Part shown: piece by piece, positions 661 through 46,065 of the stretch
Position numbering within the stretch: the first letter of the stretch is position 1
How the letters are laid out: every line of letters starts with the position of its first letter
Assembly: GCA_963787205.1 (NCBI GenBank)
Contig: CAWBCD010000021.1
Location: forward strand, 92,714 to 156,713
DNA from: an uncultured bacterium
GTDB lineage: Bacteria > Bacteroidota > Rhodothermia > Balneolales > DATFMH01
DNA length: 64,000 nt
Reading direction: 5' to 3'
Made by a program: the position numbers and the translations under genes
The notes under the pieces: model-generated
Seen by the model: the letters and a program-made list of their open reading frames with translations, nothing else
Database searches by the model: none
What the model was told of the DNA's origin: nothing

Positions 661-668
661 TGTTGCCT

Positions 669-3408: not shown

Positions 3409-3459
3409 AATATCCTCGAGCCGTTGGTTATGCTCTGTTTAGGGGACCCGGCAGAATTA

Positions 3460-3933: not shown

Positions 3934-3948
3934 GAGGCTCCCGATTTG

Positions 3949-4812: not shown

Positions 4813-5101
4813 TGGGGAATGTATAAAACTGTCATTGGGAGGAATCCCTTTAGGATGACGTGACAATCTCGTCATCAATTGGAAACGCATAATACAGAGG
4901 CATGAATAGATCGTTTCTCGCTGAAACGAGATTGCCGCGGTGTCTTCTGACTTTTGCCATAGAATCCCGCAAGAGATAGGGAACCCCCATATATCGTATA
5001 AAAGCATTTTCACAGTGAAGCCACCTCGCAATGACAATACTTTTTACTGGTGCTACAAAGAAATGTAGTCTTATCTGATTCTAACAATTTAGTTGGCAGG
5101 A

Positions 5102-6460: not shown

Positions 6461-6475
6461 TTTCAGAGTCCAAAG

Positions 6476-7138: not shown

Positions 7139-7443
7139 TTTGATCCTCCATTGGTTGTCTCTGTTTTTGAAGGCCCTGGCCGGTAATTGAAGAGATGCGA
7201 TCGTGGCCAGGTACGCTTGTCTGAATTTTTCCAGATAGAATAGATTACGCGAAAATCTAAGTATCTATATGATAATACAGGATACTGTTTAATGAAAAGT
7301 TATAGCGGAAAAACGAGGCGTTTCAGACAAAATAAGCATAAACAGTAAATTCCACGAAGGGGTCTACACTCTTCAGTGTTATGTTTGCAACCGTCCTTGT
7401 TAATTGACTTACAGTCTCACCATGGATATGGCGTGGGAGAGGT

Positions 7444-7881
7444 TCAGGGATAATTACTAAAAGCCTTAATACCTTCCAGGTATGCCGCAAATTCCTCATT
7501 GAACAGCGCCCCCGGACGTCTGTTTCTTAACAGCTCAACCGCTTCACAACCATCCATTCCCATGTAGGTGAGAATCAGCCCGGCCATCAAGGCCGAACGG
7601 TTGAACCCCAAACCACAATGTGACAGCACTTTGTACCCGTTATTTATGAGATCGCTACCCATACGTGCGACAGAATGCAGTTTCTCAAGATCCGGAAGCT
7701 CCCGGTCTATGATGGGGAAGTAGATATAAAGGAGGTGATTCGGGACCGTCGGTACGCCAATGTCCAGATCGCCATCCAGGTCTATTACGGCTGATATTTT
7801 GTTCTTTTCAATAGGATCCCAGTCGTCAACATCCGGTGAGAGGTATAAATAACCTTCACGATCAACCTGAATAATTTCCAT
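7444..7881 (-). CDS. Dual-specificity / tyrosine protein phosphatase
   Basis: 145 aa containing the CX5R active-site loop HCGLGFNRS. Confidence 0.8.
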   Translation of the reverse strand: MEIIQVDREGYLYLSPDVDDWDPIEKNKISAVIDLDGDLDIGVPTVPNHLLYIYFPIIDRELPDLEKLHSVARMGSDLINNGYKVLSHCGLGFNRSALMAGLILTYMGMDGCEAVELLRNRRPGALFNEEFAAYLEGIKAFSNYP

Positions 7882-8040
7882 TGTACAAACTTTCTGAAGT
7901 GTTCATCATTAAATCAATAACAGGTAGCCACTGGTTTCAGGCACGTCTGTAAGTGTATAGAGTGCAGGGAAAAATGAATACCTTCAACTATCATTTAATT
8001 TTTACGCGGAACTTTAACGTTTGTTTCTATCGTGGATATG

Positions 8041-9267
8041 TCACCAGCCTTTTATTTTCAATTTTAGAGCATTAGCATAACGATCAAGTGCTGTGCGCGC
8101 AGCTTTGGCACTGGCCGGCGTCTCGGGTTTGGTGGAGTCCGGACCCTCAAAATGCCAGGATAGTACGTTCAGAACCCCGGCTTTACGATCGGCTTTCAGG
8201 TCAAACCGTCCAATCAGATGTTCGCCAGCAAGAATAGGCATGCAGTAATATCCGTAGATACGTTTCGGCGCCGGTTTGAAGATTTCGAGGATCTGGTCAA
8301 AATCAAAAAGAAGCTTCACCCGATTTCGGTCCCACAGCACAGGGTCAAAAGGGGAGAGAAGCACACCCTGATCCCGACGGGGGCGTATGCGTGAGAGGCG
8401 CTTCGCCAGATCAAGGTCGTCAAATCGTATCCAACCTGCCGTTTTTTTGCCATGCGCCCGAACCAGGGCACAGGGTATGATCGTATCATTCTCGACCAGC
8501 CGGTGCAATGCAGCGGTTATTTGTTTTTGGCGGTTACGTAGTCGCCATGTCTGCGTCAGGGTTCCTGTTGTGGCCCATCCATGGCCTTGTAATGCGTAAA
8601 GGAGGAGGCGTTCAATGGCCCCCGGTTCCGGTACAGCTGATTCTCTGTGATGATCCGGAATGACATTCTCTGTGAGATCATACGTGCGCTGAAAATTACG
8701 ACGTTCTCTGATTGCCAGTTCGCCCGACGACCACATTGCCGTTGCTACACGTTTGGTTGTCTTCAGATCCCACCATCCACTGCTGCCGCTACCCTCCATG
8801 TCCAGCGATCGCAGCGGCCCCTCGTTGCGAATACGACGGCGAAGGCGGTCGGCGATATCGGGATGCTTGCCGACGAGATCTCCCCACCATGGATGTTTCA
8901 CAAACTCTTTGCGACGAAAATCCATAACCGGGTAGAGGTCCATGGGAAGCCAGCTCGCCTCGTGTCCCCAGTATTCGAAGATGGGCTCACCGGGTTGCAA
9001 CAATTCTTCAGCCAGTTGAGGGTCGAAGCCTTCCAGACGGGATAGTAAAACGATAGCGTGGCTTCGGGCACCTGCAATGGAAACGGTGTCCAGTTGAAGA
9101 TAACCGAACCTGTTGATGATTTGCCAGGCGACTTTACGTGCATGAAGACCTCTCCCGGCAGCTCGCTGGGGCAGGCCGGTCCAGGCTGGTTTTAGAAGAC
9201 CTGCGCATGTTAGTGCCAGCCGGCGTGCAGACCGGATGTCGATAGTCTCACTACGTCTGGAGGACAT
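8041..9267 (-). CDS. YcaQ/AlkZ-like winged-helix DNA glycosylase family protein (HTH_42)
   Basis: 408 aa. Length and segments such as FEYWGHEASWLP and YCMPIL match my recollection of the YcaQ family. Confidence 0.6.
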   Translation of the reverse strand: MSSRRSETIDIRSARRLALTCAGLLKPAWTGLPQRAAGRGLHARKVAWQIINRFGYLQLDTVSIAGARSHAIVLLSRLEGFDPQLAEELLQPGEPIFEYWGHEASWLPMDLYPVMDFRRKEFVKHPWWGDLVGKHPDIADRLRRRIRNEGPLRSLDMEGSGSSGWWDLKTTKRVATAMWSSGELAIRERRNFQRTYDLTENVIPDHHRESAVPEPGAIERLLLYALQGHGWATTGTLTQTWRLRNRQKQITAALHRLVENDTIIPCALVRAHGKKTAGWIRFDDLDLAKRLSRIRPRRDQGVLLSPFDPVLWDRNRVKLLFDFDQILEIFKPAPKRIYGYYCMPILAGEHLIGRFDLKADRKAGVLNVLSWHFEGPDSTKPETPASAKAARTALDRYANALKLKIKGW

Positions 9268-9556
9268 AGTTGTCTGGTTAAAAAGGATCTGGATTTATTT
9301 GAATAATTAACCAGATAAGGTAACAAAATGTATAGACAGTATGAAGATTCTATCGCTGGGGGGATTCCCGGAGAGCGGATGATGAATAGTGAATTCACGC
9401 TTCAGTTAGTGCCGTTTTTGATTGAATGAATCAAAGAAATTAGACTCATAGTGAGCTAAGAATATTGATTATCCTTATAAAGGATTTGTCCTGATCCTTT
9501 CAGAATCAATTAATGGTCGGAATGACATTTTGTAAATTTTTAAAATACCATGGTAA

Positions 9557-10003
9557 TTATGAAGCCAGAGAGGCTACACGCCGGAATGTGTTAAAAAGTA
9601 CTTTTACTTTTCCCGAAAGATTTTGTAATTCTTTATCGGCCACTTCATCACCTTCGAGCAAGCGGCTGAATCCGGTGATTTTTTGCTCTGCCATTGATGG
9701 TGTGATCTTTCTGAATCCCATTTTCCAGTCAGGAAAATCCCGCGTGTCAGAATACTCGGCCAGCAGACGGATTATGTTGGTGTGTCTCTTGTCCTTTTTA
9801 ACCACTTGAAATAGGGATTCCACCTCTTCTCTTGGTCCTTCAAGTAATTGAATAAAATTACCTCCCGAATAGAGCAATACGCCAGTGACACCCCTCCTTT
9901 TGTTATTATTTATAGATTCCTCCAGAATGGTAAGCAGCTCATGCTCATTGAATGATTCGGTTTCTGAACTCAGGTATATCAACTTGTAAATCTTGTTATC
10001 CAT
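9557..10003 (-). CDS. Stand-alone BLUF (blue-light FAD) sensor protein
   Basis: 148 aa. YKLIYLSS...RRGVTGVLLYSGGNFIQLLEGPREEVESLFQVVKKDKRH is the canonical BLUF core. Confidence 0.85.
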   Translation of the reverse strand: MDNKIYKLIYLSSETESFNEHELLTILEESINNNKRRGVTGVLLYSGGNFIQLLEGPREEVESLFQVVKKDKRHTNIIRLLAEYSDTRDFPDWKMGFRKITPSMAEQKITGFSRLLEGDEVADKELQNLSGKVKVLFNTFRRVASLAS

Positions 10004-10230
10004 CGTTTTTTTCTTTTCGGCAATCCTATGTAATTATTCGTCTGATTAGTGTAACGGATCGATACCCCGATGATTTTCGGGAAAAGCAAGAATCGAAATT
10101 GTCTCTTTTCAGACTACTGCCTCTTATCGAATTTTGGATAACAAATGTTAAAGAAGTATAGAGGAAATTAATGTTCTCGAGGCATTAGTTTATATATTTA
10201 GATATAAATGTTTTTTTTGCTAAGCCCTTT

Positions 10231-12138
10231 CTAATCTTCCTGGAAATCTTCGTAGTCGGTGAGTGTCTTTGGCGGGATGGCGACCCGCAAGGCATTGGCT
10301 ACGGCAAAGACATCGATTATCTCTTGTGCGACGGCACCGGCAACCGGTGGCAGCATGCCGACAGCGGCGAAGATCATCCCGACGAGGCTCAAAGCCATGC
10401 CACCTACGGCACTTTGCAAGGCGATGGTGCGCATCCGGCGTCCGATATGCATGAGTTCATCCACACGCTGCAGGGAGCTGTCGAGGATCACGGCCCCGGC
10501 GGCTTCTGTGATGATATCGCTGGCCTGTCCAAATGCAATTCCGACAGTTGCCGCTGTGAGGGCTGGGGCGTCGTTAATGCCATCACCCAGGAAAACCGTA
10601 TTGGCCTGTGCCGTTTCTTTTCGCACCAGTGCCAGTTTCTCTTCCGGGCTTTGCCCCGCGTAAACCTCTTTGATGCCAACCTTTTCCGCCAGGTATTTTA
10701 CTTCCGATTCCCGGTCTCCGGATATAAGAAGGATCCGCTCAAAACGGTGAAGTTTCTTCAGGTGACCAATAAACGGGGACCCTTCGGTCCGGGGTTCATC
10801 ACGGAATTGAAAAGTAGCAGCATAACGATCATCTATTAAGATCACGCACTCCATGCCACCTGATAGTGGTGGTATTTTTGAAGCAAATTCGGGTTGGATC
10901 GAAGTGAGTTTTTTGCGGCTCGTGATACGGAGGGATTGTCCTTTAACAATTCCCTGTAACCCTTCTCCGGGATGTTCACTTACCTGCCCTGCTTCAGGAA
11001 AATCAAGCTTTTCGTGCCGTGCTGCTTCAATGATGGCCGACGATAGGGGGTGCCTCGAGTAACGTTCCAGGCTGGCAACAAGCGAGAGAACTTCTTTCCG
11101 ATCGAACTCGTCTTCTATATGAATTTCCGTCAGTTTGGGCTGACCGTATGTCAGAGTACCGGTCTTGTCGAACATGGCCACACGGCATGTTTCTATCTTC
11201 TCGAGTACCGCCGGATCCTTGATGATGATGCCCCGCCGGGCAGCAAGGGATATGGATCCGATAATCGACACAGGTATAGCAATTAACAGCGGACAGGGTG
11301 TGGCAACTACAAGCACGGCAAGGAAAAGGACCGGGTTTCCACTTATCACCCACGCCAGAATAGCGATAGCGACAGCCACTGGCGTGTAAACGGCACCGAG
11401 TTGATCACCTAATCGTCGCATATGCGGCCGCTGCTGTTCCGACTCGCGCATGACCTGCATGATCTTCGCATAGCGAGAGTCGACGGGAAGCTTATCGGCC
11501 CGTATGGTGAGTGCAGTCTCTCCATTGATGGCACCTGAAAGAACCGTGGAACCTGGTGCTTTGGAGAGTACGTAGGGTTCACCCGTAAGGTATGATTCAT
11601 CCATGGATCCATGACCGTCAACAATAGTGCCGTCAACCGGGCAAATTTCGTGCGGAAAGACCACCAGCAAGTCTCCGATGACGACATCATCAAGCTGGAG
11701 ATCTTTTACATCACCGTTTTGCTTGCGATGTGCTTCCGATGGCATACGTTTGGCCAGTGCCTGAAGCACCGACGAGGCATTTTGCACAGCATATGCTTCA
11801 AGCGTTTCCCCCCCGGATAACATCAGGACGACCAGCGTTCCAGCAAGGTATTCCCCCAATAGCACCGCAGTCACAATGGAAATACCTGCCAGCAGATCTG
11901 AGCTGAATTCAAAACGAATGATATTCCGGGCGAGATCAAAAACAAGAGGTATCCCACCTAAAACGAGTGCTGCGAATAATGGGATATCGTACATGGGATG
12001 CCCAAAAACCAGCCAGTCGGTATGAAACAGATAACGCATCAAGAGATGTGAAACGATAGCCAGGATTGCTATGGCGGCTATATATCCCTCCTTAGGATAT
12101 CGTCTCAGGAAACTGTAAGAACCTTCTGGCTGGATCAT
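10231..12138 (-). CDS. P1B-type heavy-metal-translocating ATPase with TPC(P) transmembrane motif
   Basis: 635 aa with DKTGTLT, TGEP and GDGINDAP. The metal-binding helix reads [12 protein letters not shown], where CPC is replaced by TPC. There is no N-terminal CxxC/HMA domain. Confidence 0.9.
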
Positions 12139-12531
12139 TGAGCAAAGGAATTATACCGAACTATAGTCGAGGTTTTTTTGCAAAGCCTCCTAACTACCTG
12201 CGAAAAGTATCAAAAGATACATGCAGAAAAGTGAACTTTTCATGTCTCTATTATTACAAAATTGATGAATACTGATAGGCGTTTCCCATCCTCATTGATC
12301 GGAATTTCTCATGCTGGAATTACGTCAGGGGGGAGTTATCGTATTTGGAGAGGTTCCTTCCCCGCATTGTCCCTCGTGCAGGATTGAGAATACTTATATA
12401 TTAACGAATGTAATCCCTTTTACACCTTATTAAACATCGCTGTTTCTGCACCACGACTAAAAAAACGGGCAATCACATATTCGCCGGCTTTCAGACCTGA
12501 TACCGTGCCGTGAAACTGTCCGCTCTGGAAA

Positions 12532-12720
12532 TTATCTGCTCGACGTATACCGGGGTTCTTTTCCAATCCAGAAATACAGTACCATCCCGATAAACGGAAG
12601 CAGGATGATGACGGCAATCCAGAGCAACTTCTTACCGGTGCTCGCTGCACTTTTTAAGCAATCGTAGACGGCCACGATATCAAGTATCAATATGATGAGT
12701 TTTATGAGGCCAAATAACAT
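12532..12720 (-). CDS. Small membrane protein, PLDc_N (cardiolipin-synthase N-terminal-like) family
   Basis: 62 aa with two TM helices. LLWIAVIILLPFIGMVLYF is typical of the family. Confidence 0.6.
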   Translation of the reverse strand: MLFGLIKLIILILDIVAVYDCLKSAASTGKKLLWIAVIILLPFIGMVLYFWIGKEPRYTSSR

Positions 12721-13067
12721 GGTTTTTCTCTAGTGTTTATGGATGCATACACATTATACTGCTGACATGCACCACAAGTTTCATAGCCAATCCAAAAATT
12801 GAATATACAAATTGAGATGAACCCTCATGGCTGAATGTGATACCGCATGATCGGCGATTATACGAATGACGGGCTACTTCCGAAAATCCGGTTTCCAGAT
12901 AAACCCAGTTATCAGGAGTAAGAGGTTTAAATGAATAGTCCGTAGCAACAGACATATTTGTTTTCTACAGACTTATGATTCACCTACAAGTTATGGAGTG
13001 ATAATAAGATAGGATGCAAGATGATAATCTTTCGGCACAAAAATAGAGTAATAGCCATCCCCCAGAG

Positions 13068-14216
13068 TTAATCTGGTATGGTTACTTTAAGTACCTCACC
13101 CGCTCCGTCCGGGGCGCCAAAACCAAGAGCCGATACATAGATGTTCCCATCGGGACCAAATGTCATTCCGGTGGGAAGATTGAGTCCGTCGGCAATGACC
13201 ACTCTTTTACCCGAATTATCTAAGCGTATAATTTTACCAGAATTCGGAATAGGGCCCGGACTGCTCATGGAGGTGTTCTCCAGTACATAGATACGCCGAT
13301 GCTGGTCAATCAGGATTCCAAGAATTGTGGTAAACCCGCTGGCCCAGACTTTTATTTGTCCGCTAGGGGTTACCTTGAAAATGTTGGAGCTTCCCTCGAC
13401 AATCGGAAACGTGTCAAGATTTCCCAAAAAGAAATTTCCATTGTAGGCTACAACAGTAGGGACAATGTGTCCCTGCGTCGCCGACACATCGATAACCCGG
13501 TTAATTTGACCTGAAGTGGTGACACGCACCATCTCTCCATGATTGGGTTCGACAGCATAAAGGTTATCTTTCACATTGATCATGCCGTACCACGTTCCAT
13601 CGGGTTCAAAATCTTCTTCTTCAGGATGAGCGACCGGATGTGACTGCTGCCAGACACTGAGATTGGCAATCATAGTCCACGACATGTCCGGGTTGATTCG
13701 AATAATTCCATTTGGGATTGATTCAACGCCGTGAGAGCACCCCGCTCCAGCGAGAAGCGCATAGAGCGTATGATTGATGAATGCTACATCGGCCACCCCC
13801 ATTTTCAGACCCCCTGTTACTGGGGATGTTTGGCTTGATGGCAGGTTATCAACATAAGTCGTCCTTTGTCCTGATGGACTGATTCTTGAAATCCTGCTTC
13901 CATTAATACTTCCCTTGTATGGACCTATGGGGGGAATGACTTGGTCACAAGCATTAGTTGTGGAATCAGTACCGCCTATTCCTGCCTCAGCTACATATAA
14001 ATAGCCATCTGGTCCGAATTTGAGTCCGCGAGGATTATTTAACCCTGTCGCAAAGACTGTGACAGGGCCCATATTTGGTACTTCAGGACTGCTCTTATGC
14101 ACAGATAGTGGTTCCGATACCGTATTGTCCTGAGGTTTGGTGAGATCGTTTTTACAGGAGATTAGCAGAAACAGTAATCCGGTTAATAGGACGAAGACGC
14201 TTGATACACGTTTCAT
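13068..14216 (-). CDS. Beta-propeller lipoprotein (ScyD/ScyE-like / NHL-type repeats)
   Basis: 382 aa with lipobox LLISC and repeated motifs NPRGLKFGPDGYLYVAEAG and PTGMTFGPDGNIYV. Confidence 0.6.
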   Translation of the reverse strand: MKRVSSVFVLLTGLLFLLISCKNDLTKPQDNTVSEPLSVHKSSPEVPNMGPVTVFATGLNNPRGLKFGPDGYLYVAEAGIGGTDSTTNACDQVIPPIGPYKGSINGSRISRISPSGQRTTYVDNLPSSQTSPVTGGLKMGVADVAFINHTLYALLAGAGCSHGVESIPNGIIRINPDMSWTMIANLSVWQQSHPVAHPEEEDFEPDGTWYGMINVKDNLYAVEPNHGEMVRVTTSGQINRVIDVSATQGHIVPTVVAYNGNFFLGNLDTFPIVEGSSNIFKVTPSGQIKVWASGFTTILGILIDQHRRIYVLENTSMSSPGPIPNSGKIIRLDNSGKRVVIADGLNLPTGMTFGPDGNIYVSALGFGAPDGAGEVLKVTIPD

Positions 14217-33118: not shown

Positions 33119-33241
33119 ATGATAATCATAGATCAATGATATTGGTCTATTGCTATGCAATAGCTTAGATAATTGTAAGGTATGTAAGTCTTGTCTGTCA
33201 TTGTATTAGTCCCTATTATCGTTATATATAGGGAGCGAATT

Positions 33242-34426
33242 ATGGGAGAGAATGTTGATATATCCGCATTGCGCATCCGGCGTGATGCCAATCCGCCTGA
33301 AAGAAATAACCGCAGGAACCGTGGATGGATAATCATTGCCGTTTTTCTCGTCATGGCTGTTGCGGCTGGATATATTTTCGTAGTCACGGGCGCCGCTGAC
33401 CCCGAGGTTGGTGTGTCGACGGTTATCCGCTCAGGCAATAACAAGGCGCAAAGCATGCTGACTGCCAGCGGTTATGTGGTGGCACAACGTGAGGCGGCCG
33501 TCGCATCAAAAGGAACGGGACGACTCGTATATCTTGGCGTTGAAGAGGGCGATCGGGTGACCCATGGGCAGATTATTGCACGGCTGGAGGATTCCGACGT
33601 TCTTGCTTCCCTGGCCAGTGCCCGGGCCAATCTGTCTGTTGTACGTGCTGATTCGGCTGAAGCAGCATTGAACCTGCAGCGCCAACAAGCGCTGCAAGAC
33701 CAAAATCTCACTTCCCAGGCAAATCTCGATGCGGCCAAAACGGCATATCAAAAGGTTATTGCAAATATTGGTCTGGCAGCCGCAAATATTCGGGAAGCGG
33801 AAGTGGCCGTTGAAAATACGGTAATCCGTGCTCCTTTCGACGGGACGGTATTGACCAAAAATGCCGATGTTGGCGAGATTGTGGCTCCTTTTGCCGCATC
33901 GGCGAACTCCCGCGGCGCAGTGGTAACCATAGCCGACATGTCATCGCTGGAAGTGGAAGCCGATGTCTCCGAATCCAATATAACACTCGTGAAACTGAAC
34001 CAGCCATGTGAAATCGGGCTGGATGCCTATCCTGATCAGCGTTACCGGGGTTACGTGAAGAAAATCGTGCCCACCGCCGATCGCAGCAAGGCTACCGTGA
34101 TGGTCAAAGTCGCATTTGACTCGCTCGACAGCAGGGTTCTCCCCGAGATGAGCACGAAGGTTCAGTTCCTGTCTAAAGCAAGACCAGCGAATGAATACAG
34201 CGATGCAAGGATGCTCACCGTTCCCACCACCTCTATTTTGAAACGTGATCGGAGAACCTATGTACTGCTTGTCAACAGCGGAGTGATCGAGGAGCGTGAG
34301 GTCGAGTTAGGTCAGTCGTTACGTGACAGGACGGTGGTCCAGGAAGGATTGAAGCAGGGTGATCAGGTTGTGACCGAGCCGACGGTAAATCTGAAAGCAG
34401 GGACAAAAATAAGAGTGAAACGGTAA
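33242..34426 (+). CDS. HlyD/MacA-type periplasmic adaptor (membrane fusion) protein
   Basis: The track ORF begins at TTG 33191. ATG 33242 (MGENVD) follows AGGGAG. It has an N-terminal TM anchor, a coiled-coil hairpin region and a beta-barrel C-terminus. Confidence 0.85.
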   Translation: MGENVDISALRIRRDANPPERNNRRNRGWIIIAVFLVMAVAAGYIFVVTGAADPEVGVSTVIRSGNNKAQSMLTASGYVVAQREAAVASKGTGRLVYLGVEEGDRVTHGQIIARLEDSDVLASLASARANLSVVRADSAEAALNLQRQQALQDQNLTSQANLDAAKTAYQKVIANIGLAAANIREAEVAVENTVIRAPFDGTVLTKNADVGEIVAPFAASANSRGAVVTIADMSSLEVEADVSESNITLVKLNQPCEIGLDAYPDQRYRGYVKKIVPTADRSKATVMVKVAFDSLDSRVLPEMSTKVQFLSKARPANEYSDARMLTVPTTSILKRDRRTYVLLVNSGVIEEREVELGQSLRDRTVVQEGLKQGDQVVTEPTVNLKAGTKIRVKR

Positions 34427-34443
34427 CTCTAAGGTGAAAAGCA

Positions 34444-35160
34444 ATGGAATCTCCAACAAGCGGACAGGTTCTAATAGAGTTGAAAGAAATCTCAAAATCC
34501 TATTTCAAAGACAGGATTAAAATTCCTGTGCTGTCCAATATCTCGCTGTCTATTCCGGAAGGAGAGTTTATCGCGTTCATGGGGCCGTCCGGCTCTGGGA
34601 AAACCACCCTTCTAAATCTGATTGCCGGGATCGATCATCCCGACAACGGACATGTGATTATCGATGGCGTGGATATTGCAAAACTGGGGGAATCCAGACT
34701 GGCTGTCTGGCGATCGCACCATGTCGGATTTGTCTTCCAGTTTTACAACCTGATTCCGGTGCTCACCGCCTATCAGAATGTCGAGCTGCCGTTGTTGCTG
34801 ACCAATCTTTCCAGGAAGGAAAAACGGGAACATGTGAAAACGGCTTTGAAAATCGTGGGATTGGAAGACCGGATGAGCCATTTCCCACGACAACTGTCCG
34901 GCGGCCAGGAACAGCGGGTGGCCATCGCCCGGGCAATCGTCACCGATCCGACTATTATCGTAGCGGATGAACCGACCGGTGATCTCGATAAAACTTCTGC
35001 CGAAGAGGTGCTCGACCTGATGATCCAGTTAAACCGTCGGTTCAACAAGACCATTGTCATGGTGACGCACGATCCCCGCGCCGCTGAAAAGGCACACAAA
35101 GTGATCCATCTCGATAAAGGAGAACTGAAGCCGTATGAACCTACTGAAGCTGGTCTTTAA
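34444..35160 (+). CDS. ABC transporter ATP-binding protein (MacB/LolD-type)
   Basis: Walker [10 protein letters not shown], signature LSGGQEQR and Walker B IIVADEPT. Confidence 0.9.
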
Positions 35161-36292
35161 AAATATATTTCGGCACAAACTGCGATCCATGCTCACCATT
35201 ATTGGAATTGCTGTGACGATCCTGGCTTTTGGTCTGCTGCGGACACTGATAGCAGCATGGTACGCAGGGGTGGAAGCCTCAGCTGATAATCGGTTGATCA
35301 CGCGTAACTCGGTATCCTTTGTCTTTCCGCTTCCGCTGGCTTACCGCGATCAGATTGCCAATGTGCCGGGTGTGGCACAGGTAACCTATGCCAATTGGTT
35401 CCAGGGCATTTACATTGATCAGAACCAGTTTTTCCCGCGGATGGGTGTTGATGCCGAGACGTTTTTTGAAGGTTATCCCGAATTTTTGATCACTCCGGAT
35501 GAACTGACTGAATTCAAAAACGAACGCAACGCCTGTGTTGTAGGGTCGATTATAGCGCAGAGATACAACCTGCATCTGGGTGATATTATGCAGATCAAAG
35601 GGGACATCTATCCCGGAGATTATGAGTTTGTTGTTCGTGGCATTTACAGACCGCGCGATAGCAATACCGATGCCACACAGATGTTTTTTCATTGGGATTA
35701 TCTCAATGAACATGTCAAGGAAATCGGATACGATGCCAATATGGTCGGCTGGTATATCATAACCGTTAACGATCCGGATAAATCGGCGGCGATTAGTGAA
35801 TCTATCGATGCCTTATTCAGGAACTCAAGGGCTGAGACCAAGACAGAGACCGAAGCTGCTTTTGCCCACAGTTTTATAAGCATGTCAGACGCTATTCTGA
35901 AATCCATCAATGCTATATCTATCATTATTATCGGCATCATTATACTGGTACTGGCTAATACGATGGCAATGACCGCACGAGAACGAATGCAGGAATATGC
36001 AGTCTTGAAAACTCTGGGATTCTCCGGTTCATTTCTTACTTATCTTATTTATGGCGAGGCTCTGCTGATCTCAGTTTTGGGAGGCATTATCGGAATTCTA
36101 CTCACTTTCCCTCTTGCCAGGGCCGTCCAAGAGGCAGTACCGGCCGGTTATTTCCCTGTTTTTGATGTGACTGCAGGGACCATTCTGCTTTGTGGGCTGA
36201 CTGTACTGGTTGTCAGCATCTTTTCGTCGGCTTATCCGGTTTGGAAGGCACGATCGCAAACGATTGTCGATGGGTTGAGGCAAATAGGATAG
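35135..36292 (+). CDS. FtsX-like ABC permease (MacB-type), copy 1
   Basis: 385 aa. N-terminus [18 protein letters not shown], a large periplasmic loop and a C-terminal FtsX 3-TM bundle. It overlaps the end of the ATPase gene by 26 nt. Confidence 0.85.
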
Positions 36293-36308
36293 CTCCGGAG
36301 GAACAGCC

Positions 36309-37487
36309 ATGAAAAATATTCCATTTATGTATAGCATCCGGAACCTGTTTGCCCGTCGAATCACTTTCGTTTTGACGCTGTCTGGCATCGCCCTGGTCGT
36401 GTTTGTTTTTTGTGCCGTATTGATGTTGGCCCATGGATTACAAAAGACGATGGTCGACACGGGATCAAAGAATAATGTTATCCTGTATCGCAAGGGATCC
36501 GATTCGGAATTGAGCAGCGGGGTTAACAGGGAACTCGTGAACGTGATTGCCACACTCCCTCAAATCGCTGAAGACAACGCAGGTCGGCCGATGCTTTCTT
36601 CTGAAGTCGTCGTCATTATCAATCTTAACCGGAAGGGCATTGGCGACATGGGAAACGTTTCGGCACGCGGGGTAACTCCCGAAACAGCCTTTGAATTGCG
36701 TAAGGATGTGAAGATCGTGGAAGGACGCACTTTCAAACCGGGTTCACGTGAAATTATCATTGGGAGGGCAATACAGCAACGGTTTCAGAATACCGATATC
36801 GGTCAGACGATTAAATTTGGTGGAGATGAATGGACGATCGTCGGCATCCATGAAGCGAAGGGTACGGCATTCGAATCGGAGATCTGGGGAGATGCCGACC
36901 AGATGATGCAGGCGTTCAACCGTCAGGGGGCATATTCGTCGGTAATAGTACGCCTGAAGAACCCTGCCGACACGACATCACTCAGCCAAAACCTTGAGAG
37001 CGATAACCGGCTGCTGACTATTAAGGCGGAATCGGAGCCGGATTACTATCGGCGTCAGTCGCGGTTTTTGGCGATCTTTATTCGGGTATTGGGGCTATCG
37101 ATTACTTTCATTTTCAGTATTGGTGCCGTGATTGGCGCGATGATTACCATGTATACCGCTGTCGCCAATCGAACAAGGGAAATCGGCATCCTTCGGGCAC
37201 TCGGTTTCAGAAGGCGAAGCGTATTGGTGGCGTTCCTGGTTGAGTCGATTATCCTGTCTTTGATAGGTGGCGGAATCGGCATCCTGATGGCTTCATTCCT
37301 GCAGTTCCTTAGCTTTTCCACGATCAATTTTGGTACATTCTCAGATATCACCTTTGGCTATGTCCTGTCCTCTCAAACCATTATCGCTGCATTGATTTTC
37401 GCTGTCTTTATGGGGATAATCGGTGGTTTTCTTCCCGCAGTGCGTGCCTCAAGACAGGATATTCTCGGAGCATTAAGGGCGGGATAA
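36309..37487 (+). CDS. FtsX-like ABC permease (MacB-type), copy 2
   Basis: 392 aa with the same architecture as the preceding permease. REIGILRALGFRR is typical. Confidence 0.85.
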   Translation: MKNIPFMYSIRNLFARRITFVLTLSGIALVVFVFCAVLMLAHGLQKTMVDTGSKNNVILYRKGSDSELSSGVNRELVNVIATLPQIAEDNAGRPMLSSEVVVIINLNRKGIGDMGNVSARGVTPETAFELRKDVKIVEGRTFKPGSREIIIGRAIQQRFQNTDIGQTIKFGGDEWTIVGIHEAKGTAFESEIWGDADQMMQAFNRQGAYSSVIVRLKNPADTTSLSQNLESDNRLLTIKAESEPDYYRRQSRFLAIFIRVLGLSITFIFSIGAVIGAMITMYTAVANRTREIGILRALGFRRRSVLVAFLVESIILSLIGGGIGILMASFLQFLSFSTINFGTFSDITFGYVLSSQTIIAALIFAVFMGIIGGFLPAVRASRQDILGALRAG

Positions 37488-37581
37488 TCGGAGTGGAACA
37501 GGATGCAGATAACTATGTCAAAGATAAACGCAGTTACATTGGTTTTAGATGAATCTACTGTTAACTGATCATTGATCACTT

Positions 37582-38085
37582 CTATCGTCCGAAGTCGTCC
37601 TGAACTCTCACAATATCCTCTTCATCTGAGGGATTATTGGGATCGGTATGTTGCCAGATCTCGGCGACTTTTCCCCAGTTATCGAGTCCCACCAACCGAT
37701 GGCGTTCTCCCTGGTGAAGTGTTATCTGATCGCCCGATTCATATTTCTTGAGCGGGCCCTGGTCATTGGTTTCGCTGGTAATAATACCTACAGGACCATC
37801 AACCACTCTCCATATTTCAGCGCGTCGGTGATGATACTGCCATGAAAGCCTTTGATCCGGCTGAACAATCAGGATTTTGGGGCTTAATTTACCCGATATT
37901 TTCAGCTGATCCAGTGGGATACTGTCGAAGTACCTGTCTGAAAATTTTTTGGCTTGATCTTCATCTATTACAAAGAATCCGCCCCATGGCCGTTCCCTGT
38001 CCTGATCGACAATAGTGAAGCCCTGCTTTTTTAATTCTTTCTCGGTTTCATCAAACAACTTTTGTTTGGTCTGATCATCGCTCAT
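37582..38085 (-). CDS. Cupin-domain protein, type-II phosphomannose-isomerase-like
   Basis: 167 aa. ERPWGGFFVI...LSWQYHHRRAEIWRVVDG...GERHRLVG matches the PMI type-II cupin core. Confidence 0.65.
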   Translation of the reverse strand: MSDDQTKQKLFDETEKELKKQGFTIVDQDRERPWGGFFVIDEDQAKKFSDRYFDSIPLDQLKISGKLSPKILIVQPDQRLSWQYHHRRAEIWRVVDGPVGIITSETNDQGPLKKYESGDQITLHQGERHRLVGLDNWGKVAEIWQHTDPNNPSDEEDIVRVQDDFGR

Positions 38086-38229
38086 CGATAAAAAGATTTA
38101 AAGATTCATAAAGAAACAAATTATCGCCGCCCGAATTTATGAAAATTTTTTCGTCGTATGGAATTAACGAAAATGTTACCGGAACAATTCAACTTAGGAT
38201 ACGATGAACAAAACCGGATGCATCTCATA

Positions 38230-38988
38230 TTATTTTACGTGGATGATAAGTATATCATCACCCCGTAACCGTTTGCCATGATTATCTTTTGTGCCATGAT
38301 CCGTGTAACTGGCTGTCAGGATGAATACGCCATCGGGCTTGTAATTTGACGGCCGTTCCAGCCGGATAATACCTTGCAGGCCCGTTAGATAGTTAAGATC
38401 CGGATTACTGCCGTTCTGCATGATCCATCGTACTATGCTCTGTGCCTGCTGAGTTGTGAGATCGGGATGCGACGGCATCACTGCATTTCCCCAAATACCG
38501 GTTGAACCATTTATAATATGTTCTGCCAATCGTTCAATGTCAGGTTTTGTGGCGGGATATTTCCGGCTTATTGCCGTGAAAGACGGACCGATTCTGGTAG
38601 CATCAAAAGCATGGCACGTAATACAGTTTGATGTCCTGATTGCAGCAAGACCTCGCGGGTCGGGTTTTGACGCCTGAACAGTGTCTTGTGAAATTTTTGA
38701 TGGATCCGGCTCATACCGGACCTCCATAAAGACTTCGGATGGGGTGATTTCGCCGTATTTGGAATCCCCGTCTTCTTGATCCGATACCCTGATTTTATAG
38801 CGAATCTGGGTATCCCATTTGAAATCACTACTATTTTCAGGAGTGATGATCCTGACCACCGGACGGTGATTCCCCGGCTCCGATCGAAGAGGAGTTGTTT
38901 TATTTGGTAAGGCGTTCGTCACGTTTCCAACCGTAAGCAGAAGGGATAAAATCCACAAACTTTTTAGAGAGAACCTGTATTTCATCAT
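38230..38988 (-). CDS. Secreted c-type cytochrome with N-terminal beta-rich domain
   Basis: 252 aa with a signal peptide, a single heme motif CITCH and a distal Met region (GNAVMPSHP). It starts 11 nt after the stop of the amine-oxidase-like gene. Confidence 0.8.
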   Translation of the reverse strand: MMKYRFSLKSLWILSLLLTVGNVTNALPNKTTPLRSEPGNHRPVVRIITPENSSDFKWDTQIRYKIRVSDQEDGDSKYGEITPSEVFMEVRYEPDPSKISQDTVQASKPDPRGLAAIRTSNCITCHAFDATRIGPSFTAISRKYPATKPDIERLAEHIINGSTGIWGNAVMPSHPDLTTQQAQSIVRWIMQNGSNPDLNYLTGLQGIIRLERPSNYKPDGVFILTASYTDHGTKDNHGKRLRGDDILIIHVK

Positions 38989-38999
38989 TATTATTCTCT

Positions 39000-40497
39000 T
39001 CAGGCCTGGTCAATCTCCCGGGCTACCCGGTTTGCAGAGCGAAGACACGACTCCATTCCGCGGCTGAGGTTGTCGGCGTAAGTACCCGCAAAATAGATCT
39101 TCCCCTCCGGTTTCATAATTTGCGGCCAGAATTTATGCATCTCGCCAATAGGAAAGGGAAGCATCTCGCAAGTCGGGGCAAAGGTGTCCGTGGTCCAGTC
39201 TTTGGTAAGTGCCTGGACAATGGTATCGCTCTTGCCGGGATAAACTTTCCTGAAAGCAGCTAAGACGCGCAGTGGTGACAGCCCACCGGGACCATATGCC
39301 TTCAGGATAACCCGTTCCGTATCAACCTCGTTGTATTCCTGCCATATCGAAGAGATGTCAGGATGATCAAATTCCATATTGATGCTTTTAAAGCCGTCTT
39401 TAAGCCAAAATTTGGAGCTTGCCTCAAACACGTAAAAGGGATGTGAGGTATACGCCAGGTTATTCAAGACATATTGCTTCTCCGGCGACAAGGATGGGGT
39501 CACCGGGATGTTCCGGAATACCGGCAGTGAGATGCAGTTTACCAGGTAATCGGCCGCCAGTTGTTCATCCTGATCGTAGTCATATCTATTATAGGTAACG
39601 GTAACTCCATCGCTGTCCTGTTTGACTGCCGTTACGGAATGTTTGAGTTTAACCCGCGAACCAAGCCGCCGGGCGAAAGCATTTGGCAGTTCCTGGTTAC
39701 CGCCTTTCAGTCGATGCGTGACGCCCTCCCAGAGCGGAATGTCTCTTGATTTCATGACCGTCAGGCGCCATAATTCATAAAGAGCCGATGTATGCCTGCC
39801 TCCAAGGTAGCGAAGGGCCGCCTGCGATGCTCCCTTTTTCTTATAGATATCAGCTATGGGAACATTGTCCAGTTGATCATATCCCACACCGAAGGGTTGA
39901 TAAGGATCGGTAAATTTTCCAAGATAAGAATCGAGGTAGAGTCCTTTCAGCGCCCACCATCCCTGGGAAGACATAACCTTTATCTCATCAGAATGGAAAC
40001 CGAATGTGCGAAGCACAGCGGGATCTGCCAGCATCTCTCCGGTATAAAACTTACCATCAATCATTTTCAGGGAGTTCTCATCTTTCGGACTCGGGGATCC
40101 CTCGGCGTTCGGATAGGGAAGGACCGGTAGTCCAAATTCTTCAGCATATTTGAAGAAATACTCGTAACCGGGCTTCGTGATATGATCTGCGCCAAAATCG
40201 GCATATAAACCATCCGACAGTCCATCGCGGCCGGTAAACACATGACCTCCATATCGTCCGTTTGCTTCCAAGAACAACGACTTCATGGCCGCGCTTCATC
40301 AGTTCATATGCACAGCAAAGTCCGCTGATGCCGCCACCTGCAACGATTACGCTTTTACGGTTGCCTGATTTAGGGGAAAACGGATTGGTTGATTCAGTTT
40401 CTTTTGCACCTTTGATCAATCGGCGACCCACAAAAGTACTCCCGACACCGGCAATGAGTGTCGTTTTAATAAAATCCTTTCTGTTTAAATCCTTCAT
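39000..40497 (-). pseudogene. Tat-signal flavin amine-oxidase-family enzyme, interrupted by a single-base frameshift
   Basis: ORF 40141-40497 encodes the Tat-like leader (NRKDFIKTTLIAGVG) and FAD fingerprint VIVAGGGISGLCCAYELMKRGHEVVVL. ORF 39000-40286 continues EANGRYGGHV in another frame. Removing one G from GTTCTTGGAAGC (minus strand, about 40264-40275) restores ...VVVLEANGRYGG... Confidence 0.8.
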
Positions 40498-40783
40498 CTT
40501 TTTCTGAATTAATCGCAGGAATCCTTTTTCCCAACTGCATGAGTGTTACAGGTATCCGGTTTGGGTACTGAAAGTTAGCAGAATGACTAACATTCACAAT
40601 AACTAATCAAAACCAGTGTCGCTACACCCATCAATATCCCGGAATTTCATACCAACCCGGCGTTCAGCTAACGGGTAATAGCGTGTCGACAGATTTTTTC
40701 TGAAGATAAATCAGGATAAATGAATATCTTGGAAACGTTACCAGGGTGAAATAGATATTTACGAATACCACAATCAGACTATA

Positions 40784-42346
40784 ATGAAGAGCTTCAGGTT
40801 ATACCTTCCGATTCTCTTAATAGTGTTGCTTCCGTTAACGTTGCGGGCACAGATATTCCCGTCGAAGCAGTATGGTGAGTTATTCCGCAAAGTCCAGATG
40901 TCGGACATCTTCAAGGATTCAAAGACCTTTACGGATATGATCGCCTTGCATCCACCGGAAGTCATCTTGAAAAAGTATGAGGCTGAAAAAGATCAGCCGG
41001 GATTCGATCTGAGAAAATTTGTATTTGCAAATTTCAAACTCCCGCAATCCAAGCAAAGCCATTTCAAGAGCGATACGACCGCTACCGTTGTCGAACATAT
41101 CAACAGGCTCTGGCCGGTGTTGACACGTCAACCCGATAGGCATCAGCTGTCTTCACTGATACCATTGCCATATCCCTATGTGGTTCCGGGGGGACGTTTC
41201 CGGGAGATTTATTACTGGGACAGCTATTTCACCATACTGGGGCTTTGGCACTCACATCAGTCAACTCTGATAAAGGATATGGTCAAGAATTTTGCCTACC
41301 TGATCAACAAATACGGCTTTATTCCCAATGGAAACCGGACCTATTATCTCACTCGTTCTCAGCCTCCTTTTTTCCCGCTGATGGTGCAGATACTTGCCGA
41401 GGCAGAGCACAATCCTCATATCCTGATAACCTATCTGCCAGAGATGCAGAAAGAATATGATTTCTGGATGAAGGGCGCCGGCTCGCTGACTCGTTCCAAT
41501 TCTGCATATCGGAATGTGGTCCGATTGGATGGCGACGTTATTCTCAACCGGTACTGGGATAGTTCCGATCGTCCGCGGCCGGAGGCTTTTAAACACGATT
41601 CGCTGCTGGCTTTGCACTCCAGCCAAAAACCTGGCGAACTCTACAGGAACCTGCATGCAGCCGCCGAGTCGGGATGGGATTTCAGCAGCCGGTGGATGGC
41701 CGACAAGAAAGATCTCTCTACGATCATCACCACGGATATCGTGCCTGTCGACCTGAACAGCCTGCTTTATCACTATGAAAAAACGCTGGCTAAAGCCTAC
41801 AAAATGCAGGGTAATTCAACCAAGGCTGCTGATTTTGAGCAGAAGGCAAAAGAACGAATGGATGCCATGCGGAAATACTGCTGGGATCCCGACTTGCATG
41901 CTTTTACCGACTATAACTTCAGGCAGAAAAAAGTTACGGGAGTTCTATCGCTAGCCTGTATGTACCCGCTATTTTTTAAGGTCGCCACGCCGGCGGAAGC
42001 CAAAGAGACGGCTAATACCCTGAAGATGCACTTGCTCAAACCCGGTGGTGTCGTTACGACTGTCTATGACACGGGGCAGCAGTGGGACGCGCCAAACGGA
42101 TGGGCACCTTTGCAATGGATTGCCTATGAAGGATTGGTCAATTACGGCTTTACCTCGTTGGCTCATGAAATCAGGGATCGATGGATGAAAGTCAACCAGC
42201 GGGTTTTCCACCAAACTGGCAAAATGATGGAAAAGTACAACGTCGTCGATCCATACGTTAAAGCCGGTGGTGGCGAATATGCGCTGCAAGATGGTTTCGG
42301 ATGGACTAACGGGGTGTACATGCAATTCGAGGCAACAAAGAAGTAG
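40784..42346 (+). CDS. treA: Periplasmic alpha,alpha-trehalase (GH37)
   Basis: 520 aa with a signal peptide. Both trehalase signatures are present: PGGRFREIYYWDSYF and QWDAPNGWAPLQ. Confidence 0.9.
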   Translation: MKSFRLYLPILLIVLLPLTLRAQIFPSKQYGELFRKVQMSDIFKDSKTFTDMIALHPPEVILKKYEAEKDQPGFDLRKFVFANFKLPQSKQSHFKSDTTATVVEHINRLWPVLTRQPDRHQLSSLIPLPYPYVVPGGRFREIYYWDSYFTILGLWHSHQSTLIKDMVKNFAYLINKYGFIPNGNRTYYLTRSQPPFFPLMVQILAEAEHNPHILITYLPEMQKEYDFWMKGAGSLTRSNSAYRNVVRLDGDVILNRYWDSSDRPRPEAFKHDSLLALHSSQKPGELYRNLHAAAESGWDFSSRWMADKKDLSTIITTDIVPVDLNSLLYHYEKTLAKAYKMQGNSTKAADFEQKAKERMDAMRKYCWDPDLHAFTDYNFRQKKVTGVLSLACMYPLFFKVATPAEAKETANTLKMHLLKPGGVVTTVYDTGQQWDAPNGWAPLQWIAYEGLVNYGFTSLAHEIRDRWMKVNQRVFHQTGKMMEKYNVVDPYVKAGGGEYALQDGFGWTNGVYMQFEATKK

Positions 42347-42742: not shown

Positions 42743-43000
42743 GCAAAACCATCATTTTGACCACTTCTCGTTCTGCATCACAACGCGGTATCCATCCACA
42801 TCTTCAAAAGTCTTTCCGTTGACATCCCAAAATGGATTGAAGGAGGGCAGTTCAATAAAACCGGCTGCTTTCATTCGCTCACATAATTCTATCCATTTCT
42901 GCCTTTCAGGAATATAAAATACCAACAAATGATCCGGGTCAGGGTTCTTTCCGCCGGAATGTCCTTCTTTCGTTTTATCTGACGTCGACCAACCCGCGGG
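42743..43000 (-). pseudogene. N-terminally truncated VOC/glyoxalase-fold gene remnant
   Basis: Manual minus-strand translation gives ...KEGHSGGKNPDPDHLLVFYIPERQKWIELCERMKAAGFIELPSFNPFWDVNGKTFEDVDGYRVVMQNEKWSK*. This is the C-terminal half of a VOC-family protein. An in-frame stop lies at 43001-43003 and there is no start. Confidence 0.5.
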
Positions 43001-43139
43001 TCATAATAAATTGCGAATAGCCGTAAAAGGCGTCAATAAACCGGTCAATCAATGCTCGTTTTTCCATCTCATCCATCGAATAATCTTACGACTATTAAGA
43101 AGGAGTTCCCGTAAGTACCTCTACATTGTATTGGATTTA

Positions 43140-44445: not shown

Positions 44446-46065
44446 TTAAACGGTTGTCTCAATCCGCAAATCCAGTAGTTTTTTTATGTCGTGTATATCA
44501 TCTTTCGATTGGACGGGAATGAACAGCCAGCGTCCTTCCGGGTAGGGAGTGGCCTTGGCGATAGCTTCCTGCGCAATTTTACCAGGATTCATAGTCTGGG
44601 CTTGTTGCCACATGCCTAATCCCATATAAGCATCACCCATAGCAGTCAGAATTTCGGCATTATTCGGCATCAGTGTATTGGCCTGTATGAATTGGTCCAG
44701 AGGCTGTTTTAAATTCCATGTTCCCCATAAGTCGATATCACCCATGACAAGATGAGCCTCCGACAGATTCGGATTTAATGTCAGGGCTTTTTCAGCCAGT
44801 GGTATTGCAGCGGTATAATCCGGGTATGAGGCAAGCAGTTGAGCCTTGCGCGCGTAGGCCAGTGCAAATTTGGGGTCCAGATCGATGGCCTGTTGATAAA
44901 GATCCAAAGCCTGATCCCTTATAGGTGATTTATAATGTACCCAGTAATTCCACCAATAATAATTGGCTCGCATATACAAGTCATAAGCCTCGGGATTCTT
45001 CGTGGGAATCTGGCGCAGTGTAGTTAGTTCCTGTGGGCTGAGTTTGGCATTCAGAGAACGCGCAACACTGTCGACCAGTTTCCCTCAACCCCAAAGATGT
45101 TGTTCAGGGTACGGGTGTAAGACTGCCCCCAAAGGTGAACGGAGTTTTGAGCATCAATAATCTGAACGTTGATCAGAACCTGGTACGCCAGCCTTTTCTT
45201 GCACGAATAATCCACGATCGGTACTCATTCTGAAACTCCTTGACAATCCGTCCGGGTTCATCGAACGTCTGAAATCGGTTGGCGGGCAGTTTGTTCAGGC
45301 ATTTGGTAATAAGGGAGGTAAGTCCGTCAGGTATCTGATCGTAGTCTGGTTCTTCGTTTAGAATGGAATAAGGCAAAGTCGGTTCATCATCACTTTTGAA
45401 GGGCAGCCGACTGGTGATCATCTCATATAATATCACTCCGAACGTCCAGATGTCTGCTTGTTTGCCCGGAGTTTTCTCTTTGATCTGTTCAGGCGGCATG
45501 TATTGGGAGACAGGTGTAGCATGCGGGGGTGTTAATCCGGCAAATCCGAAATCTAAAAGTTTTGCCGTACCCTCGTCCGTGATGAAAATAGCGATGGCTT
45601 GAGTTCACCATGTACAATTTCCTTAGCGTGTGTTTTGGTCATGGCCTGGCAAATCTGTACGGCAATATCCAGCACCTCCTCCAGTCTCAATGATCCGCGG
45701 GCGATCTTACCCTTTAAAGATTCCCCTTCATAGCAGTCCGTCACAATGAATAGTTGTCCATCTCCGGTCTCGTCGGTGTCGTGGATCGAGCAGATGTTAT
45801 TGTACTGCAGGGCAGAAGCAGCCTGTGTTTCGTGGATGAGACGGCGTTTAATGGCAGGGTCTTTGGTTAGTTCGGCCGGTAGAAACCTGAGGGCAACGGT
45901 ACGGTTGAGTTTGGTGTCCTCAGCCTTGTAGATGGTGCCCATTCCGCCTTCGCCGAGCTTTTCCAGGATCTTAAAGTGTGATATCGTCTTACCGACCATT
46001 TCCATCTTAGAAACATCCTGGCTACGGTGGTCACATACCGCTTTCGCCGGGTTCTTAATGATCAT
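44446..46065 (-). pseudogene. Ser/Thr protein kinase - periplasmic module - TPR gene broken by several frameshifts
   Basis: Fragment 45553-46065 has the Gly-loop LGEGGMGTIYKA and reads IVHGELKPS, then shifts frame. The alternate frame gives FITDEGTAKLLDFGFAG. Fragment 45173-45499 has MPPEQ...ADIWTFGVILYEM. Manual translation of 45060-45180 gives VLINVQIIDAQNSVHLWGQSY. Fragment 44446-44979 is TPR. Confidence 0.75.

Follow-up and report, generated by a model that had tools for sequence, protein, structure and literature searches.

Does the pair of genes at 38230-40497, on the minus strand of a 64,000-nucleotide stretch of DNA from an uncultured Balneolales bacterium (assembly GCA_963787205.1, contig CAWBCD010000021.1; hereafter, the window), encode a hydrogen peroxide-forming amine oxidase with a cytochrome gene for a neighbor, or a dehydrogenase that delivers its electrons to that cytochrome? 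And what is to be made of the copy assembled here, whose flavoenzyme reading frame is interrupted? Comparative sequence analysis suggests that the locus is probably a two-gene operon for a periplasmic, cytochrome c-dependent dehydrogenase of the flavoprotein amine oxidoreductase (FAO) superfamily rather than for a peroxide-forming oxidase. This reading is based on the conserved synteny of the two genes, published precedent, and the loss of the lysine that faces flavin N5 in related enzymes. The window's own flavoenzyme gene, as assembled, carries a 1-nt insertion that parts the leader and FAD-binding motif from the remainder, which results in a non-functional product.

Conservation of the flavoenzyme-cytochrome pair

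A scan of one genome per species (~185,000 species genomes) identified 244 flavoenzyme loci, of which 80 were fetched and ~77 had enough downstream DNA to be informative. A full-length homologous cytochrome is found directly 3' of the flavoenzyme, on the same strand, in 66 of these ~77 loci, with a median gap of ~10 nt. The heme-binding CxxCH is present in every cytochrome copy (67/67). Clustering of all open reading frames (ORFs) adjacent to the flavoenzyme in the fetched loci left the cytochrome as the sole conserved neighbor. The hosts belong to the Chitinophagaceae, Sphingobacteriaceae, Mucilaginibacter, Cyclobacteriaceae, Flavobacteriaceae, and Balneolales, and further copies are found in metagenome-assembled genomes binned as Acidobacteriota or Gammaproteobacteria. 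The pair is also retained in three Balneolales-type relatives of the window. The first-pass annotation of this DNA had made the pairing depend on the cytochrome being syntenic with the enzyme's homologs elsewhere, and the 66 loci bear this out.

Relationship to known cytochrome-dependent FAO enzymes

Akram et al. (Biochemistry, 2025; PMC12224317) drew two signposts from NicA2, Pnao, and CycN, namely a twin-arginine translocation (Tat) leader and an adjacent Sec-exported cytochrome c (CytC). Applied to the top 5,000 NicA2 BLAST hits, these signposts yielded >100 candidates in three clades (PMC12224317). In stopped-flow experiments, candidates reacted with their own CytC at 10^4-10^6 M-1 s-1 and poorly with O2, and CytC adjacency was the better of the two predictors (PMC12224317). 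No Bacteroidota genus is named in the text of that paper or in one of its supplementary files. A Tat leader with an adjacent Sec CytC is an established, kinetically validated predictor of cytochrome c-dependent dehydrogenases (PMC12224317), and the kind of system is therefore already known. Judged by sequence, the window's family appears to fit both signposts, the leader by motif, but to lie outside the NicA2 neighborhood by score.

Like NicA2/Pnao with CycN of Pseudomonas putida S16 and the three published clades, the family combines the FAO fold, a leader with a Tat-like motif, and a Sec-exported c-type cytochrome in the same operon. The same flow from substrate to FAD, cytochrome c, and the respiratory chain would be expected. 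Sequence similarity is low, as the family profile scores 63 bits against NicA2 and 43 bits against Pnao but 139 bits against L-amino acid oxidase (LAAO). Whereas NicA2 and Pnao occur in Proteobacteria and keep the N5 lysine (K340), this family occurs in the Bacteroidota/Balneolota group, has Phe in place of that lysine, and has a Cys at the position of covalent FAD attachment in monoamine oxidase (MAO). The partners also differ. Those of the published clades are 11-kDa monoheme (class I) or 20-kDa diheme c4 cytochromes (PMC12224317), whereas the partner here is a 25-kDa c551-type cytochrome nested in an immunoglobulin (Ig)-like domain. What is new is a widespread variant that differs in lineage, flavin-site residues, and partner architecture.

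The flavoenzyme family

One flavoenzyme gene accounts for two overlapping minus-strand ORFs in different frames, 40497..40141 (118 aa) and 40286..39000 (428 aa). Deletion of one base within GTTGTTCTTGGAAGC (40264-40278) restores a continuous 498-aa flavoenzyme at 40497-39000 (-), and the repaired peptide reads ...HEVVVLEANGRYGGHV... across the junction (also given as ...GHEVVVLEANGRYGGHVF...). The features of the gene are as follows, with residues numbered on the repaired protein.

40270..40497 (-): 5' part, residues 1-76, with the leader and the FAD-binding beta-alpha-beta motif, to VVVL; 89% identical to residues 1-76 of the intact relative L001

40465..40485 (-): Tat-like motif NRKDFIK, an RK variant of the family motif [KR]RRxF[IL]K (family alignment; RK also in P0001 and P0003)

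40321..40338 (-): GGGISG dinucleotide-binding fingerprint (GxGxxG); G54, G56, and G59 invariant in 201/201 sequences

40264..40275 (-): frameshift site in GTTCTTGGAAGC, with a surplus G (40268/40269) or T (40273/40274) (alignment with L001/L002, tblastn)

39000..40268 (-): 3' part, residues 77-498, from EANGRYGG... to the stop (ORFs, Pfam, comparison with L001)

39435..39446 (-): SHPF motif with Phe354 in the flavin-N5 lysine column (phmmer alignment to 3kve/5ts5; F in 200/201; K/F-x8-FW spacing)

39168..39170 (-): Cys443, invariant, aligned with MAO-A Cys406 and MAO-B Cys397, the 8-alpha-S-cysteinyl-FAD site (family and MAO alignments)

38989..38999 (-): 11-nt spacer between the flavoenzyme stop (39002..39000) and the cytochrome ATG (38988), the operon junction (median ~10 nt in 66 loci)

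The repaired flavoenzyme belongs to the FAO superfamily (PF01593). It matches the Pfam Amino_oxidase model over profile positions 1-442 of 443 (E=5.7e-47; 161.4 bits, cut-off 19.8), and its PDB neighbors, by sequence and by structure, are FAO enzymes throughout. The GGGISG fingerprint, which had been recognized in the first pass, is confirmed at 40338..40321, and the whole FAD-binding signature GGGISG...VVVLEANGRYGGH has G54, G56, G59, E77 (in VLEA, at the end of strand 2), and G84 invariant in 201/201 sequences, the set used for all family-wide residue counts. The family comprises 1,956 protein clusters at E<=1e-10, the best 120 of which are 66-92% identical, and its alignment has a mean column identity of 78%. 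Against the PDB, the family profile scores 139 bits with snake LAAO (1.2e-39), 88 with MAO-A (6e-24), 78 with MAO-B, 63 with NicA2, and 43 with Pnao; a single-sequence search gives the same ranking (LAAO > MAO-A/B > NicA2 > Pnao). Foldseek returns the same order, with LAAO as the best match (7.8e-24, TM ~0.65). The underlying AlphaFold2 (AF2) model, built from P0001 and 35 close homologs, has a pLDDT of 66.8, with residues 349-447 below 50, and was used for fold ranking only.

The leader motif [KR]-R-R-x-F-[IL]-K, followed by a hydrophobic stretch, is found in 187 of 193 family members, and RK replaces the twin arginine in the other 6. The window's leader, N-R-K-D-F-I-K, has RK, as do those of P0001 and the 76%-identical P0003, and RK appears to be a stable leader variant of the window's lineage. 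The Tat model TIGR01409 gives the window's leader no score; a typical RR member reaches 14.4 bits, below the cut-off of 16.7. The Tat-type leader claimed in the first pass therefore stands as a motif-bearing leader but not as a twin-arginine one.

The residues around the flavin set the family apart from its better-studied relatives. The column of the flavin-N5 lysine (LAAO K326, MAO-A K305, MAO-B K296, NicA2 K340) contains Phe354 in 200/201 sequences, with the same x8-FW spacing. This absence marks the family as atypical within the superfamily without precluding its membership, as the other superfamily features are present. The snake-venom and vertebrate LAAOs (1F8R, 3KVE, 5TS5) are the best full-length match in both sequence and structure and have the same division into three parts, with the helical region at 130-250. 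They differ in that their carboxylate-binding Arg90 corresponds to His105 (201/201) and their Lys326 to Phe354, and in that this family is bacterial, is predicted to be exported through Tat, and is paired with a cytochrome. Human MAO A and B share the Cys at the flavinylation position: Cys443 is invariant and matches the flavinylated Cys406 (MAO-A) and Cys397 (MAO-B), with an equal 26-residue spacing to the FAG motif. The C-terminal 70 residues also have their best match in MAO. In contrast, the MAO-A cage residues Tyr407 and Tyr444 correspond to Glu444 and Gly480, the latter preceded by an invariant Arg479, and the N5 lysine and the C-terminal membrane anchor of MAO are missing from this family. 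Because the LAAO Arg, the N5 Lys, and the MAO cage residues are replaced across the family, the flavoenzyme appears to represent a clade of its own, whose active site is polar, and to be an ortholog of neither LAAO, MAO, nor NicA2.

The cytochrome partner

The first-pass annotation had also described a secreted monoheme cytochrome c gene (CITCH, 38625..38611) 11 nt downstream of the flavoenzyme, which is confirmed. The gene has the following features.

38230..38988 (-): cytochrome partner gene, 252 aa, with a Sec signal peptide, an N-terminal sandwich half, a c551-type heme domain, and a C-terminal sandwich half

38911..38988 (-): predicted Sec-type signal peptide MMKYRFSLKSLWILSLLLTVGNVTNA (read from the sequence; helix 9-26 in the model, then a low-confidence linker)

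38704..38871 (-): N-terminal beta-strand part, residues 40-95 (NHRPVVRI...VSDQEDGDSKYGEI...EVRY) (alignment, AF2 model, Foldseek)

38611..38625 (-): heme-binding CITCH (CxxCH); C122, C125, and H126 invariant

38476..38478 (-): Met171 in an invariant MP, the probable sixth heme ligand as in cytochrome c551 (alignment)

38233..38406 (-): C-terminal beta-strand part, residues 195-252, with the ASYTDHG motif (38293..38313; Y228, T229, and D230 invariant)

The protein matches Pfam Cytochrom_C and Cytochrome_CBB3, and residues 113-192 form a c551/c552-type class I domain (phmmer against the PDB, 7.5e-15; 28-37% identity). The CxxCH, the Met-Pro sixth-ligand motif, and the ~80-residue helical fold are shared with cytochromes c551 and c552 (class I, c8 type; 351C, 2D0S, 1YNR). 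Those proteins are small and free-standing, whereas here ~55 conserved residues flank the heme domain on each side, with the motifs NHPPVVKI..., VSDxEDGxSK..EI, and ASYTDHG. The AF2 model, which is confident (pLDDT 86.5), has three strands before the helical heme domain and four after it. In Foldseek searches, the core matches c551/c552 (TM 0.85; 1COR, 1YNR, 2D0S), and both flanking strand sets align jointly, across the gap, to the Ig-like domain 9kvu (probability 1.0). Since the flanking strands match one domain together while the core matches another, the model places the heme domain within an Ig-like sandwich that residues 40-95 and 195-252 form jointly. The predicted insertion lies between strands 3 and 4 of the seven-strand sandwich, whose invariant motifs are VSDxEDG and ASYTDHG. 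Pfam searches with the isolated N- and C-terminal parts gave nothing significant (MATH_2 at E=0.12 only). The description of the partner as CycN-like, made before this analysis, holds for its monoheme c-type character but not for a small size, as the 252-aa protein has conserved N- and C-terminal parts.

An exhaustive profile search found the whole nested module mostly as stand-alone proteins of 230-270 aa. The module (profile positions ~25-248, unbroken) also occurs within Bacteroidota proteins that combine a pyrroloquinoline quinone (PQQ)-dependent glucose/sorbosone dehydrogenase (GSDH), a PKD domain, the module, and CBM6 (P0375, P0385, P0386, P0337, P0365). In those proteins it shares one chain with a quinoprotein and a carbohydrate-binding module, whereas in the present family it is encoded separately, beside a flavoprotein. 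To our knowledge, these quinohemoprotein-like architectures are uncharacterized, and we know of no biochemical study of them. The fusion of the same module to PQQ sugar dehydrogenases suggests that the Ig-nested c551 module may be an electron acceptor built into periplasmic dehydrogenases.

Two further observations concern this cytochrome. Its N-terminal strand segment (profile ~25-72) matches 14-32 tandem stretches in the giant proteins P0241, P0243, P0258, and P0382 (1,700-5,900 aa), and this tandem recurrence indicates that the segment probably derives from a common Ig-like adhesin-type repeat. The cytochrome gene has a dN/dS of 0.19-0.23 between the window and L001 or L083, compared with 0.02-0.08 for neighboring genes, and its product is 77-80% identical where the flavoenzyme is 92-97% identical. 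Partner-specific surface co-adaptation has been reported for other FAO-CytC pairs (PMC12224317), and the faster evolution of the cytochrome fits such co-adaptation with the flavoenzyme.

Dehydrogenase or oxidase

In the mechanism that these features suggest, the ~50-kDa enzyme would fold and take up FAD in the cytoplasm, probably covalently via Cys443. To judge from the motif, the FAD-loaded enzyme would then be exported through Tat by its RR or RK leader. In the periplasm it would oxidize a C-N bond in a polar amine, as expected from the chemistry of the superfamily. The co-encoded, Sec-exported c551-type cytochrome, and not O2, would take the electrons of the reduced flavin one at a time, in two steps, and may pass them onward to the respiratory chain. 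The NicA2/CycN-like electron transfer proposed in the first-pass annotation thus gains support in silico from the pairing in 66 of ~77 loci, the Lys-to-Phe replacement in 200/201 sequences, and the precedent in PMC12224317.

The alternative is a periplasmic H2O2-forming oxidase, acting for example on L-amino acids or monoamines, with the cytochrome a mere neighbor or serving another role such as peroxide handling. The top PDB matches of the flavoenzyme are true oxidases (snake LAAO, 1.2e-39; MAO-A, 6e-24). Tat-FAOs with no CytC nearby mostly react fast with O2 (PMC12224317), and 11 loci of this family have the enzyme without the cytochrome. However, the pairing is kept across families, and across phyla as binned, while the other neighbors all change, and the two genes are nearly contiguous. 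The O2-promoting lysine is missing in 200/201 sequences, and the substrate-site residues of the matching oxidases are also replaced (LAAO Arg90 by His105 in 201/201; the MAO cage Tyr residues by Glu444 and Gly480). Monoheme c551 folds ligated by His and Met carry electrons and are not peroxidases. The partner's fold accordingly suits electron carriage rather than a peroxidase role, and a peroxide-forming oxidase is unlikely.

Several points nevertheless weigh against the dehydrogenase reading. The family is known from sequences and predicted models alone, and the model of the flavoenzyme, of low quality (pLDDT 66.8; <50 in the substrate domain), gives no active-site geometry. By profile score the enzyme appears to be no close relative of NicA2 (63 bits, against 139 for LAAO), and the window's leader, as read, has RK rather than RR and no TIGR01409 score. 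Among the ~77 informative loci, 11, mostly from Mucilaginibacter, have no CxxCH-bearing gene within 6 kb of the flavoenzyme. The N5 lysine is nearly universal and promotes reaction with O2, and O2 reactivity is lowest where Glu takes its place, but oxidases and dehydrogenases cannot be told apart reliably from near-flavin residues (PMC12224317); the Lys-to-Phe argument is therefore suggestive only. Finally, the copy in this window is frameshifted, and the gene as assembled does not do the family's job.

The frameshift: assembly error or young pseudogene

DNA alignment with the intact relatives L001 and L002, which come from other samples and share 92% amino acid identity, reveals exactly one surplus base in the window, and tblastn with an intact ortholog switches from frame -2 to frame -3 at the frameshift site. 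The frame split at about 40264-40275 reported in the first pass is upheld by the repair and by these alignments. The extra G to which it was attributed stands as one surplus base but not as a G, as dropping G (40268/40269) or T (40273/40274) gives an identical peptide. The site has runs of 2 only and no long homopolymer, and the repaired gene contains this single lesion, with no further stop or indel across 498 codons. The dN/dS of the repaired flavoenzyme against L001 is 0.067, within the 0.02-0.08 of neighboring genes, and neither L001 nor L083 has a shorter branch than the window. Relaxed selection on the flavoenzyme is not apparent. Twelve other genes common to the window and L001 (~11 kb coding) align in a single frame without gaps, and the assembly is therefore not indel-prone.

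The dichotomy offered at the outset, a freshly inactivated gene or an assembly indel, holds up, and sequence alone does not separate the two. The odds of a very young pseudogene and of an assembly error are roughly the same. There is an even chance that the frameshift is a real and very recent inactivation, by which the strain has lost the enzyme but so far kept an intact cytochrome gene. The lesion stands alone in an assembly that is clean elsewhere, and nearby genes have decayed relative to L001 (remnants at 42750-43030; a kinase split over 45173-46065). The 11 related genomes with the flavoenzyme but no adjacent cytochrome imply that the pair is dispensable or can be rearranged. The lack of relaxed constraint means that such an event, if real, was very young, and a pseudogene cannot be told from an error without reads. 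The chance of a sequencing or assembly error, with the gene intact and the cassette working in the organism, falls slightly short of even. It is favored by a dN/dS as low as that of the neighbors, a branch no longer than the relatives', a lone lesion over 498 codons, an intact cytochrome gene, and a source record that appears to be of metagenome type. It sits less well with the short runs at the frameshift site, with the 12 genes that show no frame change against L001, and with the true local decay in the window (the kinase in pieces, the methyltransferase and glyoxalase remnants). Moreover, the public protein set contains the 428-aa truncated product, which places the indel in the deposited record.

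Programmed +1 ribosomal frameshifting at CUU-G, with the P-site Leu tRNA slipping from CUU to UUG as at prfB, is chemically conceivable but very improbable. A +1 shift at CTT|G would, as read from the sequence, restore ...VVVLEANG.... However, the site has no in-frame stop or evident stall codon in the A-site and no Shine-Dalgarno-like stimulator upstream, and 200/200 examined relatives, including those of 92% identity, use a single frame. In practice, the window's flavoenzyme gene is either broken or wrongly assembled, and only read support would justify counting it as functional.

Neighboring genes

A cupin gene (37582-38085) and a trehalase gene (40784-42346) were considered as parts of the system and dropped, as they accompany the pair only in Balneolales-type relatives. 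The cupin (-; 167 aa; Pfam MannoseP_isomer C-terminal; no signal peptide) lies 144 nt beyond the cytochrome. It is 95% identical in the Balneolales-type L001 and L083-L085 and absent beside the pair in other carriers. The trehalase (+; 520 aa; TreA/TreF family, 598 bits), with an N-terminal signal-like sequence, is divergent from the flavoenzyme over a 286-nt spacer and syntenic in the closest relatives only. A MacB-type efflux cluster at 33191-37487 (+), made of a membrane-fusion protein, an ABC ATPase, and two FtsX/MacB_PCD permeases, shares 88-93% identity with L001 and L083. Within 37400-41000, scans for sigma-70 promoters and terminators returned nothing above shuffles, and an Rfam scan gave no match.

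Compared with syntenic L001, 42750-43030 is reduced: no more than 25 aa are left of an ICMT/PEMT-type methyltransferase (43029-42955), a YycE-like glyoxalase (42973-42755) is truncated, and the SnoaL-like gene of L001 is absent from the window near this position. The region is a site of local gene loss beside the trehalase. Farther on, a Ser/Thr protein kinase gene at 44446-46065 (-) is fragmented. The catalytic loop in the N-lobe ORF (46065..45553) is degenerate (HGELKPS), the C-lobe ORF (45499..45173) lies in a different frame, and a TPR-containing ORF (44979..44446) matches a DUF3788 protein of L001 at its C-terminus. The region looks like a decayed or fused gene.

Substrate lead and significance

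In 10 of the 80 fetched loci, from two unrelated groups and L015, the pair is embedded in co-directional amino-sugar (nag) clusters (Cyclobacteriaceae-like L024, L035, L036, L041 [1-13482], and L052; Mucilaginibacter L048, L057, L059, and L062; plus L015). These clusters contain a NagP-like transporter, NagB or NagB-PIG-L, NagA (231 bits, above the TIGR00221 cut-off), and NagX-like proteins, together with Tat-signal Gfo/Idh/MocA oxidoreductases, DUF1080 3-keto-disaccharide hydrolases, and an SGNH esterase. NagX clusters have been genetically linked to periplasmic glucosamine use (PMC9007349). Because of this context, the NagX link, and the polar active site (Glu444, Arg479, His105), an amino sugar is a candidate substrate, though a tentative one of low probability. 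The lead is weakened by the abundance of sugar genes in these genomes and by the window itself, which has only the trehalase and cupin nearby. Literature searches on this family in Bacteroidetes, or on a flavin enzyme that deaminates glucosamine, returned nothing relevant. The most specific proposal, which is speculative and rather improbable as a whole, is that of a fourth, independently evolved Bacteroidota/Balneolota lineage of cytochrome c-dependent FAO dehydrogenases. Such enzymes would have covalent FAD (Cys443) and an O2-blind flavin site (Lys to Phe), would deaminate a periplasmic amino sugar (glucosamine or a chitosan-derived amine), and would pass electrons via the Ig-nested c551 module that is common to PQQ sugar dehydrogenases.

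Current work is reinterpreting the superfamily's "amine oxidases" as a mixture of oxidases and respiratory dehydrogenases, and the dehydrogenases shown so far are NicA2-related and mostly from Proteobacteria. With the present family, the respiratory-dehydrogenase principle would reach a group of bacteria abundant in soil and water. Its Phe in place of the N5 lysine, combined with a MAO-type Cys, offers a natural experiment on how O2 reactivity is turned off, and its partner exemplifies a modular Ig-nested cytochrome that may serve flavo- and quino-dehydrogenases alike. If the amino-sugar lead is true, the family would add an energy-conserving periplasmic step to chitin and chitosan nitrogen turnover.

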